A stretch of 32,000 nt of DNA from Candidatus Omnitrophota bacterium (GTDB lineage: Bacteria > Omnitrophota > Gorgyraeia > Duberdicusellales > 4484-171), in the NCBI GenBank assembly GCA_021735045.1, contig JAIPHU010000004.1:30001-62000 (forward strand), written 5' to 3'. A program made the translations under genes and the position numbers. This document shows positions 5,102 to 11,564 of the stretch, piece after piece. The notes under the pieces were generated by a model. That model did no database searches, was not told the DNA's origin, and saw only the letters and a list, made by a program, of their open reading frames with translations. Within the stretch, counting starts at the first letter, position 1. Every line of letters starts with the position of its first letter.

Positions 5102-5460
5102 GGGGGTGAATGGACTCGACCTAAAAGGCGATGCGAAAAGGAGCATGCCGAGGATGTGAGTTGCCTGCGATAGTGGTACTTGCAAAAAATTAAATGCAGA
5201 AAACACATTTAATACCACTCCTGCTTACGCTGTAAGTTAAGGAGGCTCTTCTACTTTTCTGCCTCGGAAAGTATAAGAGTTCATTTATGAGGCTCGGAGT
5301 AAGCTTTTGCTTTTCGGGTTTACTCTTAAAACTAAGGAAAGCTGCTTCCTGGTAAATCCTGCCTTTTGGAGCTATCAGGAAAAAGATAAACAAAAGGCTA
5401 AGCATGTAGAATCTTTTTGCTGAAATTTTAGGGACGCGGGTTCGATTCCCGCCACCTCCA
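5102..5460 (+). ncRNA. ssrA: tmRNA (transfer-messenger RNA)
   Basis: The 5' GGGGGUGAAUGGACUCGAC and 3' GGACGCGGGUUCGAUUCCCGCCACCUCCA match conserved tmRNA termini. The acceptor stem 5102-5108/5453-5459 includes the G3:U70 alanine identity pair. An internal tag ORF runs 5196-5240 (GCA resume codon, TAA stop). CCA is not encoded. The track ORFs 5030-5218(-) and 5190-5513(-) are artefacts over this RNA. Confidence 0.9.
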
Positions 5461-5501
5461 TTTTTTCGACCTATCCGAAAAATCAGTAAACCCGAAACAC
5501 A

Positions 5502-5525
5502 TTCGGGGGACACAATACTTAATTA
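5502..5525 (+). repeat. Left inverted repeat flanking the RAYT gene
   Basis: GGGGACACAATACTTAATTA (5506-5525) is the exact reverse complement of 6229-6248. With one mismatch the match extends to 5502. Confidence 0.85.
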
Positions 5526-5526
5526 G

Positions 5527-5554
5527 TTGACACTGTATTAAGGAAAAGTATAAT
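5527..5554 (+). promoter_or_regulatory. Consensus promoter of the RAYT gene (probably a leaderless mRNA)
   Basis: TTGACA (5527-5532), 16-nt spacer, TATAAT (5549-5554). The ATG at 5561 is only 6 nt past the -10 box and has no Shine-Dalgarno sequence. Confidence 0.55.
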
Positions 5555-5560
5555 ACAGGT

Positions 5561-6235
5561 ATGCCAAGAATAGCACGAATTATAGCCGAAGGCTACCCAC
5601 ATCACATAATACAGAGAGGAAACCGCCGCCAAAAAGTATTCTTTCAAAATAGAGACTATCAAGAATATCTAAAACTTTTAAGCCAACATTCAGCCAAAAA
5701 CAACCTTTCTATAGCTGCCTATTGTTTAATGCCTAATCATGTCCATATTATAGCTATACCAAACAACAAACAAGGCCTAGCCAAGGCAATAGGAGAAACC
5801 CACAGAAATTACACCCGAATGGTAAATTTCAGAAAAAACTGGCGCGGATACCTTTGGCAAGGAAGGTTTAGTTCATATATTATGGATGAAAAACATTTGT
5901 ATGCAGCGGTAAAGTATATCCTCAATAATCCAACAAATGCAAAGGGAAAAATAACAGAAAATGTCCTAGATTACCGCTGGTCAAGCATTCATCATCATAC
6001 TGGAAAAGAGAATATACCTTGGCTAAAAGATGATATATTGCAAAACATGATAGATGATTGGAGTCAATATCTAAATGAAGGCCAAGACAATAAACAGATA
6101 GAGCTTTTAAAAAAACATGAACGCACCGGCCGCCCATTAGGAGATAATAATTTTATAGAAATACTTGAGAAGAAATTAGGAATAAGCTTAAAAAAGAAAA
6201 AACCAGGGCCAAAGAAAAGAAGGGGAGATAATTAA
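5561..6235 (+). CDS. REP-associated tyrosine transposase-like protein (IS200/Y1 HUH transposase family, COG1943 type)
   Basis: 224 aa. HUH motif in LMPNHVHIIA. Catalytic-Tyr region AAVKYILNNP...DYRWSS, typical of this family. C-terminal ERTGRPLGDNNFIE tail. Confidence 0.8.
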   Translation: MPRIARIIAEGYPHHIIQRGNRRQKVFFQNRDYQEYLKLLSQHSAKNNLSIAAYCLMPNHVHIIAIPNNKQGLAKAIGETHRNYTRMVNFRKNWRGYLWQGRFSSYIMDEKHLYAAVKYILNNPTNAKGKITENVLDYRWSSIHHHTGKENIPWLKDDILQNMIDDWSQYLNEGQDNKQIELLKKHERTGRPLGDNNFIEILEKKLGISLKKKKPGPKKRRGDN

Positions 6236-6252
6236 GTATTGTGTCCCCGGAA
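6229..6252 (-). repeat. Right inverted repeat flanking the RAYT gene
   Basis: TAATTAAGTATTGTGTCCCC (6229-6248) is the reverse complement of 5506-5525. The transposase stop codon (6233-6235) lies inside it. Confidence 0.85.
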
Positions 6253-6418
6253 TTATTGATTAAGCCTCTTTTTTATAATTACGTTATTTTTTTTATCTTT
6301 TCATCTTTATGCTTCGACATCTCCCATCCAATTAGATACAATTGATTATTCAAGCGCCCAAAGACAAGGTTATCCGACCGATGAAGAACTTATAAGTTTA
6401 GCTACTGAGAAAGGACTA

Positions 6419-7803: not shown

Positions 7804-8025
7804 CTACCTCAATCGTTCAGAACCTCTCACTTCTCCCCACAAATCGTTGAATTCTTGATAAGCAGAGGAGTCGGCTGGGTTATATTCGAAGATCAGATCA
7901 CCTGAATAATGCTCGTAGATTAAAATTTCATCGTTTTCTTTTACAATATCCACGGCTACACTGTTTGTAACCAATTCCCACCTCCGAGGTGGGAATTTTT
8001 TTGTTGAGAGCGTTTGGAAAACCAT
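7804..8025 (-). CDS. Questionable hypothetical ORF (73 aa from the internal ATG)
   Basis: The track ORF 7804-8277(-) overlaps both the + strand promoter at 8038-8065 and the + strand gene at 8118. Only the part from the ATG at 8025 is plausible. Codons 9-19 (KKFPPRRWELV) are encoded by the 34-bp repeated hairpin, so this ORF may be an artefact. Confidence 0.3.
   Translation of the reverse strand: MVFQTLSTKKFPPRRWELVTNSVAVDIVKENDEILIYEHYSGDLIFEYNPADSSAYQEFNDLWGEVRGSERLR
7968..8001 (+). repeat. 34-bp direct repeat, copy 1 (terminator-like hairpin plus T-tract)
   Basis: TAACCAATTCCCACCTCCGAGGTGGGAATTTTTT is identical to 10284-10317. The stem is 7973-7983/7987-7997 (11 bp, 3-nt loop) and is followed by Ts. 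Confidence 0.9.
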
Positions 8026-8037
8026 GGTTTTTTTGCT

Positions 8038-8065
8038 TTGCCTCAGCTTAAGCATGCGATATAAT
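8038..8065 (+). promoter_or_regulatory. Putative promoter of the HEPN-like gene
   Basis: TTGCCT (8038-8043), 16-nt spacer, TATAAT (8060-8065), 53 nt upstream of the ATG at 8118. Confidence 0.45.
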
Positions 8066-8117
8066 TTAATTAATGAATATTCCAGAAAATGCGGGTTCCG
8101 TATATTAATCACTGTAC

Positions 8118-8786
8118 ATGAAAAAAACAAGACAGGAACAAAAATTTGAAAAATATAGAGAATATCTAAATTCGGAAACGCAACTTCTCTGGCAATATAT
8201 ATCATTATATAAACATCTTCATAAAAAAGTACAGGATAGGCTAGACGAAATAAACATAGCTCCTGCTTTTTTCTCAACAGTTCAGAGTGCCCTCTTTACA
8301 TGCATTGTTCTATGGATACATAATCTTTTTTCTGAAGAATCACAACGTGGCCTTCATGATTTTTTAAACTTTATTGAAAGTAATCTTAGCACTTTTAAAC
8401 TTAGTGAATTAAAAAGGCGAAGAGAATTTTCTGATAATCATTGGTTCCTAAAAAAAATAACGGAGTTAACAAAATCAGACATAAGTGGACATCGAGCTAT
8501 GCTTAAATCTATAAAATTATTGAATTCTATAAAAACACGACGGGACAAATATCATGCACATTTTGACAAGAAGTATTTTTTCAACAGAGAAAAGATAAAT
8601 AAAGAAAAACCTATTTTGTGGAAGGATCTTGATGAAATAAAAGAGCCAATGGAAAAAATTATAAACACTTATTCTGTGGCTTATGACGGAAGCTCATTTA
8701 GTATACAATTTGTTAATGCTTATGATGTTGATAGGATTTTAGATATCTTGCATGAATATAGAGAAAAAAGAAAAAGGCGCACCTAA
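8118..8786 (+). CDS. HEPN-superfamily protein, AbiU2-like (putative abortive-infection RNase)
   Basis: 222 aa, predicted all-helical. It carries an Rx4-6H motif in IKTRRDKYHAHFD (nt 8538-8561). The N-terminal APAFFSTVQSALFTCIVLWIHNLFS helix resembles AbiU2-type HEPN domains as I recall them. Not verified by HMM. Confidence 0.5.
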   Translation: MKKTRQEQKFEKYREYLNSETQLLWQYISLYKHLHKKVQDRLDEINIAPAFFSTVQSALFTCIVLWIHNLFSEESQRGLHDFLNFIESNLSTFKLSELKRRREFSDNHWFLKKITELTKSDISGHRAMLKSIKLLNSIKTRRDKYHAHFDKKYFFNREKINKEKPILWKDLDEIKEPMEKIINTYSVAYDGSSFSIQFVNAYDVDRILDILHEYREKRKRRT

Positions 8787-8983
8787 TTGTTTTTAAATCA
8801 TCCACGGCCAACCAACACCACCAGATCCTTCAGATAGGAAGGCGAATGTTTATAAGATACTGCCGTTGAGTGAAGCGGTAAGAAGGTAGAAGTTAGAGGG
8901 GAGAAGTTAGAAAGAATTTAAACAATTGGAGGTCACAAATTGTGATGTCCAATAGATAAAAGCTAAAAAGGTAATTAAAATTT

Positions 8984-9646
8984 ATGTTGTATCTTTATTT
9001 AGATGAAAGCGGTGATTTAGGTTTTGATTTTGTTAACAAAAGGCCTTCTAAGTTTTTTACTATATCTATTTTAGTTATAAGAGGCGCAAAGAAAAGAAGA
9101 CAGGTAGCTAAAAGTGTAGAAAGAACCATTAGAAAAAAATTAAATCCGAAAAGCAAGCGGAGGAGAATGGTTCAAGAATTAAAAGGCACATCAACAACGT
9201 TAGAAATCAAAGAGTATCTATATAAAAGAATAAAGAAGATAGATTTTTCTATTTATAGCATAACCTTAAATAAAAGGCGAGCTTATAGCTATTTAATTAA
9301 AGATAAATCAAGAATTTATAATTTTATAGCACGCAGTATTCTAGATAAAGTTGATTTTTCTGATACCAAAAATAGAGTTATTTTGACAATTGATAAGAGC
9401 AAGAGTAAGCCTCAGATTAAAGAATTTAATGATTATATTTATAACCAATTGGAAGCTAAGATAGATCCTAAAGTTTCTTTATATATAGAGCATGCAGATT
9501 CTTGTGCAGATAAATGTTTAAACGTGGCGGATTTATTTAGCTGGGGAGTTTTTAGAAAACATGAGAGAAAGGATTCTCTATGGTATGATTTATTTGCAGA
9601 AAAAGTTGAATTTGATCAAATATATTTGCTCCAAAATAAAAAATGA
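8984..9646 (+). CDS. DUF3800 family protein
   Basis: The N-terminus MLYLYLDESGD matches the YxDESG signature. The C-terminal HADSCADKCLNVADLFSWGVF matches the DS...Q/N.AD motif of DUF3800. Confidence 0.75.
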   Translation: MLYLYLDESGDLGFDFVNKRPSKFFTISILVIRGAKKRRQVAKSVERTIRKKLNPKSKRRRMVQELKGTSTTLEIKEYLYKRIKKIDFSIYSITLNKRRAYSYLIKDKSRIYNFIARSILDKVDFSDTKNRVILTIDKSKSKPQIKEFNDYIYNQLEAKIDPKVSLYIEHADSCADKCLNVADLFSWGVFRKHERKDSLWYDLFAEKVEFDQIYLLQNKK

Positions 9647-9731
9647 GCGGACCCTGCGAGTTGAGCGTTAAAGCTTTTGCCAACCAGATGGAAGGGAACA
9701 CTTTAACAACTCGCAACGGAATTACCGCTCA
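9644..9731 (+). other. 88-nt long imperfect hairpin (possible structured RNA or DNA hairpin)
   Basis: Three stacked helices: 9644-9650/9725-9731 (7 bp), 9655-9663/9707-9715 (9 bp) and 9668-9673/9701-9706 (6 bp). There is a 27-nt apical loop. It begins exactly at the DUF3800 stop codon. No T-tract follows. Confidence 0.6.
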
Positions 9732-9779
9732 AGTTAAATATACAATATGGGGATGACAAAGTCAAGTTATTTTTGAACT

Positions 9780-10286
9780 ATGAAACCCGGCGACATTCTA
9801 CTATTCAAAGCAGAGCGTGATTTTGTTTCTCGGCTGATTGCTTGGGGGACTGGAAGCAAATATTCCCACGTGGCAATTTGTGTATCTCCGAAGATGCATC
9901 TAGCAATTGAGGCGATTGCCAGAGGCGGGATCAGAGCTAGGGATATTAGAAAGATCCCCAGAGATTATGATCTTTATAGGGTAAAGGAAGATTATTCTTA
10001 TAATCTAGATGGTGTTATTTCTTATCTAGTTGATAAGCTCAACGAAAGATATGATTATCCCGGTGTTCTCTGGTTAGGATTTATAAAGTTACTTGCAAAG
10101 ACCGGCCTTCCGTTTAAAGTTACAGCTAACAATTGGCAGAAGCGGCGAGATCATTTTTGTTCAGAGCTTTGCTCTGAAGCATTCTTCTATGGCGGAGGGC
10201 TAGATATTGTGCCAGAACAACCAGCAGCGAACATAACTTCCCCGGCCGATATTGCGAATAGCTCAGTCATAGAAACTGTACAATAA
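9780..10286 (+). CDS. Permuted papain-like cysteine peptidase/amidase (YaeF/YiiX, C92; NlpC/P60 superfamily)
   Basis: 168 aa. An N-terminal PGDILLF...SKYSHVAICV segment (His region) precedes a C-terminal HFCSELCSEAF segment (catalytic Cys). This is the circularly permuted order typical of the family. Confidence 0.65.
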   Translation: MKPGDILLFKAERDFVSRLIAWGTGSKYSHVAICVSPKMHLAIEAIARGGIRARDIRKIPRDYDLYRVKEDYSYNLDGVISYLVDKLNERYDYPGVLWLGFIKLLAKTGLPFKVTANNWQKRRDHFCSELCSEAFFYGGGLDIVPEQPAANITSPADIANSSVIETVQ

Positions 10287-10317
10287 CCAATTCCCACCTC
10301 CGAGGTGGGAATTTTTT
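10284..10317 (+). terminator. 34-bp direct repeat, copy 2; intrinsic terminator of the 9780-10286 gene
   Basis: Identical to 7968-8001. The 11-bp stem (10289-10299/10303-10313) is followed by T6. The repeat starts with the TAA stop codon of the upstream gene. Confidence 0.75.
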
Positions 10318-10344
10318 GCCCCAATCCAAAGCAGGTGGTATAAT
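10316..10344 (+). promoter_or_regulatory. Putative promoter of the 10496-11422 gene
   Basis: TTGCCC (10316-10321), 17-nt spacer, TG-extended TATAAT (10339-10344). This leaves a leader of about 150 nt. Confidence 0.4.
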
Positions 10345-10495
10345 TATAAAAACAACAACAGACACCTTTTTAATAAAGTAAATCCTGATAAAAGTCATCT
10401 GCGGAAAGAAACAGAAGAGGGGCCTTCTCGCTGAAAGTTAAGTAGTACGTGTCACGGATTTTTTTAAACAAGTTTATAAGAAGGAGGAAGAGTTA

Positions 10496-11422
10496 ATGGA
10501 TAGAGCTAAAAGTTACACTATTATATCTGCATTATTTCTTGGTATAGCAAATATTTTATACTGGTTTATTCTTCCGCTAATCTTTGCGTTGAAATACCCT
10601 GGTGGTCTACGAGGACCGATTATGCGTTGTATGGTTTCGCCTTCGTTAGAAATAAAAGTAATTATTTATATCATATCAGGGTTGGTGATTTTAGGGATGA
10701 TCTTGTTTATTACCGGTATTATAATTTCTTTTACGAAGAAAAACTGGAGTAAACTGTTAATAATTATTACTACGATTTTAGTATTTATGTCTATTCCTTT
10801 TATGTTTCATTTAGTAAAATTTTTTGTTGGTTCAGTAAAAAATTTTCGATATTCAATCAGTTCTTATATTGGTCCCGCATCGATTTCCAGAGATATGTCA
10901 TCATGGAAGATGTTTAAAAGCCAGAGCGATAAGTATAAAATTCAATATCCACCAGAGATGGTAAAAACTCGATTTTATTACCGTAATCCTGAAGAGACCA
11001 AAGGTTTAAAGAAGGGTCGCCCTTATGATTTCACATCATTCGTTTTAAAGGAGAATAATTATTCTGGAAAAAAGTATTACCCGTTTGAAGTTTATATAGG
11101 CGTACATCTAAATGAGGAAGGCTTATCGCCTTTAGCATTTGAAATAAACAAAGTTAAACAGAACCAAAGAGAAATAAGTAATTACCAGGTGCTGTCAAAA
11201 TCAAAAATTAACATTGCTGGAGTAGAAGGTGTAGTAGATCATACATTAGTAAAAAAAGGAAATGATGCCAAACGATTTGTAAGGTATTTTATTCCTTACA
11301 AGAATGAGATGATAATAATTGTTGGTTTAATTGGCAAGGAAAAAGAATATATCCCCGAATACCATAAGACCTTTATGGACATGCTTTCGACTTTTAAATT
11401 TATGCCAAAAAAAAGAAAATAG
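10496..11422 (+). CDS. Hypothetical membrane protein (about 4 N-terminal TM helices plus a C-terminal soluble domain)
   Basis: 308 aa. Strong RBS (AAGGAGGAAG) 7-8 nt upstream. Hydrophobic segments fill the first ~110 aa. No recognised family. Confidence 0.6.
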   Translation: MDRAKSYTIISALFLGIANILYWFILPLIFALKYPGGLRGPIMRCMVSPSLEIKVIIYIISGLVILGMILFITGIIISFTKKNWSKLLIIITTILVFMSIPFMFHLVKFFVGSVKNFRYSISSYIGPASISRDMSSWKMFKSQSDKYKIQYPPEMVKTRFYYRNPEETKGLKKGRPYDFTSFVLKENNYSGKKYYPFEVYIGVHLNEEGLSPLAFEINKVKQNQREISNYQVLSKSKINIAGVEGVVDHTLVKKGNDAKRFVRYFIPYKNEMIIIVGLIGKEKEYIPEYHKTFMDMLSTFKFMPKKRK

Positions 11423-11444
11423 GGGCAGCAATCCAATTAACTCC

Positions 11445-11472
11445 TTACACAATCCTGCCTTTTTGTTATAAT
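11445..11472 (+). promoter_or_regulatory. Putative promoter of the ABC-F gene
   Basis: TTACAC (11445-11450), 16-nt spacer, TG-extended TATAAT (11467-11472). This leaves a leader of about 90 nt. Confidence 0.4.
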
Positions 11473-11564
11473 ACTGCTTAGATAAAACAAGGACAAGATA
11501 AAACAGAAACAGACATCTTTTATATCGCAGAGCGCAAAGCGCTTAGCGCAGAGCAAATTAGAAA

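Follow-up and report, generated by a model that had tools for sequence, protein, structure and literature searches.

Structure of the locus

The subject of this analysis is a 34-nt hairpin unit, TAACCAATTCCCACCTCCGAGGTGGGAATTTTTT, that occurs exactly twice on the + strand of a 32,000-nucleotide stretch of Candidatus Omnitrophota DNA, at 7968-8001 (copy 1) and 10284-10317 (copy 2). The whole stretch, called the window below, is C5:30001-62000 in its own assembly, which has 0.98 Mb, a GC content of 34% and a completeness of 91%. Our reading, which we consider likely, is that this is a hairpin like the repetitive extragenic palindromes (REPs), that it has a Y1 transposase like the REP-associated tyrosine transposases (RAYTs) as its cognate enzyme, and that its copies stand at the rearrangement junctions of a mosaic of defence genes. 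The relatives used for comparison are the congeners G001 and G003-G006 and, from another family of the same order, G034. The assemblies compared are 76-93% complete, and what was not found in them is not necessarily absent from the organisms. The features around the two copies are the following.

5102-5463, + strand: transfer-messenger RNA (tmRNA) gene
5501-6253, + strand: RAYT-like Y1 element, with its gene at 5561-6235 and 25-nt terminal inverted repeats at 5501-5525 and 6229-6253
7804-7965, - strand: 5'-truncated remnant of a small membrane-protein gene (homologues 90-97 aa)
7968-8001, + strand: hairpin copy 1, a 34-nt unit of TAACC flank, 11-bp stem, CCG loop and T-tract
8038-8065, + strand: promoter-like site between copy 1 and AbiU2, TTGCCT-16-TATAAT, a consensus match only
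8118-8786, + strand: HEPN_AbiU2 gene
8984-9646, + strand: DUF3800 gene, 97% aa identity to G004
9640-9736, - strand: DUF3800-V RNA motif (Rfam RF02964, 68.6 bits)
9780-10286, + strand: permuted papain-like (C92/YaeF-like) gene, 95% aa identity to G004
10284-10317, + strand: hairpin copy 2, overlapping the TAA stop of the C92-like gene and fused to a promoter-like segment
10316-10370, + strand: promoter-like segment contiguous with copy 2, TTGCCC-17-TATAAT with TG
10496-11422, + strand: gene for a 308-aa accessory membrane protein, behind copy 2 and the promoter-like segment

The initial annotation had described the two copies as identical direct repeats with an 11-bp stem and a T-tract, unlikely to have arisen by chance, and both the window search and the folding bear this out. 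No further match with up to three mismatches was found in the window, and none in 100 shuffles. When the contexts of the two copies are aligned, the identity ends precisely at the borders of the 34-mer. The predicted fold is a perfect 11-bp stem with a 3-nt loop (-16 kcal/mol, z = -2.65), followed by T6-T7. It was also correct that copy 2 opens with the TAA stop of the open reading frame (ORF) 9780-10286, and that no + strand gene ends at copy 1: the nearest one upstream ends 347 nt before the hairpin, and the copy lies within a (-) ORF, 7804-8025, where it reads KKFPPRRWELV. Both copies have the GC-rich stem-loop and the T-tract that define an intrinsic terminator in sequence terms, and copy 2 looks like such a terminator. 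At the RNA level they would probably both act as intrinsic terminators, or as insulators against read-through. The 5' arm and loop of the hairpin (7973-7990, ATTCCCACCTCC) resemble the 3' end of the tmRNA (5439-5460, ATTCCCGCCACCTCC) except for a 3-nt gap, a likeness that is probably due to chance.

A dispersed family of hairpins

The core CCCACC-N5-GGTGGG is found nine times in exact form in the genome, always flanked by (T)AACC(A/T)TT, and the reversed pattern, used as a control, gave no match. Two degenerate copies bring the family to 11 copies on 8 contigs, which makes it the largest among the 57 perfect GC-rich hairpins of the genome. Ten of the 11 copies are intergenic. A degenerate copy, C20:104972-104988, is read in frame as part of a TonB-receptor-like ORF, directly behind the signal peptide. 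The initial suggestion of a dispersed REP-like hairpin that goes with variable gene content is supported by this search, which located about 11 copies and not the dozens at unrelated gene ends that a common terminator would show.

Of the six congeners searched, five carry the hairpin family, with 2-8 copies in each, and it was found in 0 of 18 other genera of the same taxonomic family. It reappears in G034, with 33 hairpins at 17 loci, where 13 back-to-back inverted doublets (21-22 nt from start to start) and tandem arrays are seen. Inverted doublets occur in G001, G003 and G005 as well; in the genome of the window the hairpins are singlets and kilobase-spaced pairs only. When one genome was scanned for each prokaryotic species, all multi-copy occurrences of the family fell in Omnitrophota assemblies, and the singletons outside this phylum are about as many as chance would give for 18 specified bases in 596 Gb. 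Scans of metagenome contigs gave 0 matches to the exact 34-mer and 1 to the family pattern. Hairpins with a CCCACC...GGTGGG core in other phyla (Berkelbacteria and Acidimicrobiia, with a few multi-copy cases) were rejected as members because their flanks are different. Judging from these scans, the family is confined to one genus of Omnitrophota and one more distant lineage. The idea that the hairpins are DNA-uptake sequences was also rejected, as the half-site is about 2-fold over the control and the excess is explained by the hairpins themselves.

The 34-mer is one subfamily of this REP-type hairpin family, carrying a fused T-tract. The whole 34-nt unit is common to six copies in the genome, five of them at bracketed cassettes and one on C4, and the T-tract is missing from about five others. 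A composite of hairpin and promoter is present three times in the genome (copy 2 and two at C16) and once in G004, and nowhere else in these, which implies a fixed 5' end (TAACC) common to the copies and an extent of 34, ~58 or 61 nt in the 3' direction. The copies are not evenly spread: three pairs within 2.5 kb were observed and 0.27 expected (P = 0.004), and three of eight hairpin loci lie within 600 nt of tRNA-type genes (P = 0.002, with a uniform distribution as the null, a generous choice).

Orthologous copies were found at the C6, C21 and C5 sites, and the one at C21 is present in a decayed form in G006. At C3, G004 is without the hairpin core and retains the outer AACCATTT…AAGGTT. At C12, beside a tRNA-Ser gene, the present genome reads ATTT[TAACCAATTCCCACCTACGCGGTGGGAA]TAAG and G001 reads TTTC|TAAG, a clean gain or loss of ~25-28 nt. 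The comparisons at C12, C21 and C3 suggest that the copies are old, that some of them are vertically inherited, and that the hairpin alone can be gained or lost. Copies 1 and 2 of the window are identical at 34/34 positions and are each other's nearest relatives, while the G004 orthologue of copy 2 differs in its loop and flank, which suggests that the duplication between them is recent. We infer that they arose as a recent, local duplicate of the 34-nt unit, made after speciation.

A Y1 transposase flanked by the hairpin in relatives

In three relatives the hairpin flanks a gene of a Y1_Tnp subfamily of ~220-228 aa (…GSIYHVFNRSIANFKIF…). It is found on both sides of the gene in G005 (C26) and G034 (C106), and on its upstream side in G001 (C9), where the contig ends. 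The gene has the same neighbourhood in all three genomes, from ComM/YifB (Mg-chelatase-like) to YraN, and the protein is 95% identical between G001 and G005, 69% identical to the one in G034, and 26-33% identical to the RAYT of the window. Other members of the subfamily are ~50% identical and occupy other conserved loci, for example between CoaB and CoaC. Each of these paralogues is sandwiched by two copies of a different private hairpin, and seven different hairpins are present in the loci examined. A Y1 gene that stands between two copies of its own hairpin has the layout of a REPtron. The private hairpins of the paralogues are at L162, L163, L164, L036, L032 and L042, and include TTTTCCACCGGCCCGGTGGAAAA and TTGCACCTCCGAGGTGCAA.

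The sole match of the subfamily to a solved structure is TnpA-REP of E. coli (4ER8, E = 1.7e-5), and its motifs PTH(I/V)H and RY(I/V)HLNPV align with PEHMH and DYIYINPV of that protein, that is, with the histidine-hydrophobe-histidine (HUH) motif and the region of the catalytic tyrosine. The NCBIfam model REP_Tyr_transpos (NF047646) scores the subfamily at 59-75 bits, below its cut-off of 80. The predicted cognate enzyme of the hairpin is this RAYT-like subfamily of Y1 (HUH) single-strand DNA transposases of ~220 aa.

It could be argued that the hairpin is simply a favoured intrinsic terminator, whose copies have been spread by selection or gene conversion without any transposase. Six copies with a T-tract follow gene ends, all seven copies located between two co-oriented genes point along transcription (7/7), and changes in the stem are compensated in a G001 variant. 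Nevertheless, we regard this explanation as unlikely. The copies at C3 and C12 and copy 1 of the window are in divergent promoter regions without a gene to terminate, and ~5 copies are without the T-tract. It is the sequence, and not the structure alone, that is kept across species and in the doublets and tandem arrays of G034. The flanking of the Y1 gene in three genomes, the private hairpins of its paralogues and the clean gain or loss of a ~25-28-nt unit at C12 also speak against a mere terminator.

A mosaic of accessory and defence genes

The closest relative is G004 (93% aa identity in the ABC-F gene), and its contig C25 was compared with the window in the window's orientation. It starts with the 3' end of the same RAYT (96% nt identity to 6042-6255), which is followed by different genes. 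Next come DUF3800 and the C92-like gene (94% nt identity to 8951-10287), without AbiU2 and without a hairpin on either side, and then 4.6 kb of other genes and a single hairpin with its promoter-like segment (89% to 10283-10370). Copy 2 of the window is the orthologue of this hairpin. Last are a different gene, of 351 aa, and the ABC-F gene. The left homology between G004 and the window ends in …AATAAC and the right homology begins with …TATAAC, which puts the breakpoint at the 5' foot of copy 2.

The other junction is at copy 1. The initial annotation called the (-) ORF 7804-8025 dubious, but its C-terminal 55 residues are what is left of a real, 5'-truncated gene, and two codons separate its conserved part from the hairpin. 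In the homologues, which have 90 and 97 aa, an N-terminal transmembrane helix comes first and then …SVTVDIVKENDEILIYEH…; the helix is missing in the window. At the DNA level the homology is 81% over 7805-7962 and ends 6 nt short of copy 1. The missing 5' half of the gene was not found after copy 2, nor anywhere in the assembly of the present genome. Copy 1 is positioned where the remnant meets the foreign AbiU2 segment, and since the gene is truncated at the hairpin, this appears to be a deletion or replacement junction that joins an old truncated gene to the segment from 7968 to ~8950. A possible target duplication, 7939-7956 to the left of copy 1 and 8791-8808 to the right of the AbiU2 stop (17/19, with a broken frame), was judged to be due to chance.

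The closest public relatives of AbiU2 are 56-58% identical and are stand-alone genes in unrelated contexts, and no homologue was found in 84 other genomes of the order. From this distribution, AbiU2 is a separate and foreign gene. The DUF3800-V RNA motif lies between DUF3800 and the C92-like gene, on the opposite strand to both, in a region that is 94% conserved in G004. ORF 9780-10286 is only weakly assigned to C92, scoring 21.8 bits where the cut-off is 27. The 308-aa gene behind copy 2 had no match in the six congeners searched, and G004 has its different 351-aa gene at this locus. A PADLOC search with the proteins of the module gave nothing significant. Look-ups of the exact proteins, made for strain variants, returned only short Logan contigs of SRR12088347 that are broken at the repeat.

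Similar arrangements are found elsewhere in the genome. At C16 a conserved tRNA-Met with its terminator is followed by a hairpin with promoter, an MNT/HepT pair, a slightly degenerate hairpin with the same promoter, and a conserved 219-aa gene. In the G001 counterpart the tRNA adjoins the 219-aa gene, with neither cassette nor hairpin; the homology ends in …TATTAA| and the present genome goes on with CCAATTCCCACC, so that the breakpoint is TTAA|CC. At C6 the YefM/YoeB pair has a hairpin on each side, and the whole arrangement is located between a ComEC-like gene and a gene of 316 aa. G001 has here an empty site with one hairpin, a variant with a compensated stem (TTCACACC…GGTGTGAA). G003 has the same YefM/YoeB pair (91% nt identity, flanks ~81%) together with two more pairs of toxin-antitoxin (TA) type, and no hairpins. 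The cassettes and the hairpins are therefore separable, as the same cassette genes are hairpin-free in relatives. At this site G004 has two pairs of nucleotidyltransferase type, and G005 and G006 have other genes; the spacer C6:38040-39010 and the orthologous sites (L175-L179) form a toxin-antitoxin hot-spot across the congeners.

In every testable case the homology breaks at, or at most 6 nt from, the 5' foot of the hairpin (TAAC|C). The alignments show hairpins marking the junctions of a mosaic, with breakpoints at the 5' foot. They also show the DNA downstream of the tmRNA to be a mosaic of accessory and defence genes, acquired independently of one another, and not one cassette. By the same comparisons, the intergenic DNA of the islet is itself patched together from modules that are shared. 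Two stretches of the window, 11426-11483 and 11500-11564, are short leader or promoter modules that recur before different genes in G004 and at C21:53123-53151 of the present genome.

The same comparisons bear on the idea that the 34-mers are sites like attL and attR, and that the whole AbiU2-DUF3800-C92 cassette was inserted at a single pre-existing hairpin by site-specific or Campbell-type recombination. This is close to what was first proposed for the window, where insertion or duplication of the intervening 2.3 kb was envisaged. Exact direct repeats do bracket the genes, a like architecture is seen at C16 (MNT/HepT) and C6 (YefM/YoeB), with empty sites in G001, and the paired copies are mutually nearest relatives. 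Nor does G004 carry the same two copies, having the orthologue of copy 2 only. However, the G004 counterpart of DUF3800 and the C92-like gene (94% nt identity) lacks both the hairpins and AbiU2, which is a separate gene, and the gene truncated at copy 1 never resumes after copy 2 or elsewhere in the assembly. G003 has the YefM/YoeB pair without hairpins, the end of the tmRNA is not repeated, and no recombinase is nearby, the three tyrosine recombinases being at C19, C20 and C5:70356. An insertion of the whole cassette is left unsupported by these results; the explanation is largely refuted and we give it little credence.

The RAYT beside the tmRNA

Upstream of the tmRNA, synteny is kept in four congeners (46-94% aa identity). 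The contigs of three relatives end at the tmRNA, and in the one relative whose contig continues, none of the genes downstream of it were found. An island made by an integrase at the tmRNA was rejected, as the window has no second 22-nt tmRNA end (at up to three mismatches) and the gene that comes next after the tmRNA encodes a Y1 protein. Small genes of no assigned family occupy the space between this RAYT and the (-) ORF.

The RAYT gene at 5561-6235, 1.7 kb upstream of the hairpin, was initially put forward as the enzyme that could use the hairpin as its REP substrate. It is close by, and it is RAYT-like according to both Pfam Y1_Tnp (54.9 bits) and NCBIfam REP_Tyr_transpos (57.7 bits). Yet the gene is bounded by 25-nt inverted repeats of its own that are unrelated to the hairpin. 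Four relatives of it, orthologues or paralogues, have analogous private terminal inverted repeats, so that in these five elements the repeats are 17-25 nt long with a GGGGACA core, and the CCCACC hairpin was found in the flanks of none of them. With its own terminal repeats and an identity of 26-33% to the subfamily that the hairpin flanks in G001, G005 and G034, the nearby RAYT does not seem to be the partner of the hairpin, and it is quite improbable that it acts on it.

Solo motifs of the RAYT terminal repeat (…TCGCTGAAA(A/G)TTAAGTA…GTC.C.GGA…) are seen in the 5' leaders of unrelated cassettes. They are located at ~10420-10466 of the window and, in L072 (G004:C25, reverse complement), at ~6118-6165 and ~10640-10662, and the two in G004 bracket the 4.6 kb that is not in the window.

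That the hairpins are attC-like sites of an integron-type array, as cassette-like units in one orientation, each with a palindrome, and the AAC...GTT base of the extended palindrome might suggest, can be dismissed almost entirely, since there is no integron integrase or attI nearby, the 25-nt palindrome is perfect and has no extrahelical bases, the copies are spread over eight contigs and flank a Y1 gene, and the arrays of G003 and G004 have no such sites between their cassettes.

Comparison with known systems

The best-known counterparts are the REPs of E. coli and the bacterial interspersed mosaic elements (BIMEs) that they form, which together with TnpA-REP, a RAYT, are arranged as REPtrons (Ton-Hoang 2012, PMC3333891; structure 4ER8). 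As in the E. coli REPtron, a short intergenic palindrome is repeated, a Y1 HUH gene is bordered by the same palindrome (here in relatives), the HUH motif and the catalytic Tyr region are conserved, and the gene has a fixed chromosomal locus. In some E. coli strains the tnpA-REP locus is replaced by the hicAB TA pair (PMC3333891). The differences are also clear. The E. coli REP has a conserved 5' tetranucleotide, GTAG (or CGTC), and an imperfect stem, and the enzyme needs the mismatch (PMC3333891), whereas the hairpin described here has an AACC(A/T)TT flank in place of GTAG and a perfect stem. There are ~10 copies here and hundreds in E. coli, a subset of the copies here is fused to a T-tract and a promoter, and the ~220-aa protein has an extra N-terminal region and scores below the NCBIfam cut-off. 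Of the properties that identify a REP/RAYT system, repetition, the flanking of a Y1 gene and the catalytic motifs are in place, and the GTAG tag and the imperfect stem are lacking.

The doublets of inverted REPs (REPINs) of Pseudomonas and their RAYTs (Bertels and Rainey 2011, PMC3116915; Bertels 2017, PMC5581495) are another parallel. Inverted doublets are present in G034 and some of the congeners, and the copies at the C6, C21 and C5 sites persist vertically, but the genome of the window differs from the Pseudomonas systems in having singlets and kilobase-spaced pairs only. Low-copy families, with 12-14 occurrences, are known for RAYT Groups 1 and 4 (PMC5581495), and the low copy number here fits these groups.

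IS200/IS605 insertion sequences (IS) and their non-autonomous derivatives, the palindrome-associated transposable elements (PATEs), resemble the present case in three ways: the Y1 gene has a subterminal hairpin at either end, both in one orientation; the junction falls at a short, fixed sequence on the 5' side of the left hairpin; and there is no clear target duplication. Unlike IS200/IS605, the Y1 gene here keeps a conserved syntenic position and is not multi-copy. Nor do the bracketed cassettes occur as units elsewhere, and their genes are hairpin-free in relatives. An IS200/IS605-type unit or a PATE with cargo was rejected for the window, as hairpins are missing around DUF3800 and the C92-like gene of G004 and around YefM/YoeB of G003, and the gene cut off at copy 1 does not pick up again after copy 2. 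The one-ended (rolling-circle) HUH elements IS91 and ISCR (IS with common regions) offer an analogy only: the 5' end is fixed at TAACC and the 3'-ward extents are 34, ~58 and 61 nt, but the enzyme here is Y1 and not Y2, and there is no sign of long read-through captures. REPs are also known as hot-spots for insertion sequences, such as ISPpu9 in P. putida (PMC12288879). The palindromic repeats at join-points and insertion hot-spots resemble such REP-mediated rearrangements, from which the present case differs in having its breakpoints specifically at the 5' foot and TA or defence genes as cargo.

Possible mechanism and weight of the evidence

It is highly probable that the hairpin is a member of a REP-type family and that the system as such is a REP/RAYT system. 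In the window, each copy heads a unit of promoter and gene, which it would insulate from read-through. The junctions may have been made by breakage and joining at or beside the hairpin, and the cause could be either Y1-type nicking at the foot, or deletion and recombination promoted by the hairpin or by microhomology. Y1 enzymes form a 5'-phosphotyrosine link. A nick 5' of the hairpin would for this reason protect the hairpin side and allow new left flanks to be joined, which fits the one-sided pattern of the breakpoints.

One can extend this to a more specific model, in which the TAAC|C foot is the nick site of the Y1 enzyme, strand transfer adds new left flanks and copies hairpin-led segments (34-61 nt here, and possibly promoter-gene units), and the REP system works as a one-ended, integron-like shuffler of TA and defence cassettes at hot-spots adjacent to tRNA and tmRNA genes in Omnitrophota. 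This model is speculative and we consider it doubtful.

Several observations weigh against the reading of the hairpins as REP-like elements with a RAYT-like cognate enzyme and with copies at rearrangement junctions. Neither the cognate Y1 gene nor ComM or YraN was found in the 91%-complete assembly of the present genome, which means that the ComM-Y1-YraN locus is either unassembled or lost. The Y1 gene was not found in G003, G004 or G006 either, though these carry hairpins. There are no inverted doublets in the genome of the window, and the hairpin is a perfect palindrome without a GTAG tag, while the E. coli enzyme is refractory to perfect palindromes (PMC3333891). The junction cases are only three to five, some of them read from alignments of 75-80% identity. 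Single junctions, the one at copy 2 included, are explained equally well by deletion at a microhomology (ATAAC) or by replication stalled at the hairpin.

REP/RAYT systems are known mainly from Proteobacteria, and our literature search found no paper joining repetitive extragenic palindromes with Omnitrophota. The present case would be an untagged, low-copy REP family of perfect palindromes in an uncultured phylum of ultra-small genomes. Resolved at the base level, the junctions show the hairpin's 5' foot bordering on defence and toxin-antitoxin genes. Should they be the work of the enzyme, REP systems would be a route for the exchange of defence cassettes among streamlined genomes; if they are not, the locus is a clean example of REPs that accumulate at accessory islets and confuse their reading. 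The Y1 paralogues, each with a private hairpin, may also be seen as a natural specificity series for hairpin recognition.

Other hairpins in the genome

GTAG-tagged hairpins (GTAGGGGCACATTGCAATGTGCCCCTAC) are present in the genome at C20:107320, C21:53050 and C25:27746, and the copy on C20 is inside a 187-aa RAYT-like ORF at the end of the contig. A second hairpin family, GGAGAGGT-NNN-ACCTCTCC, has five copies, at C8:58072, C16:15549, C20:185, C24:4272 and C25:32668.

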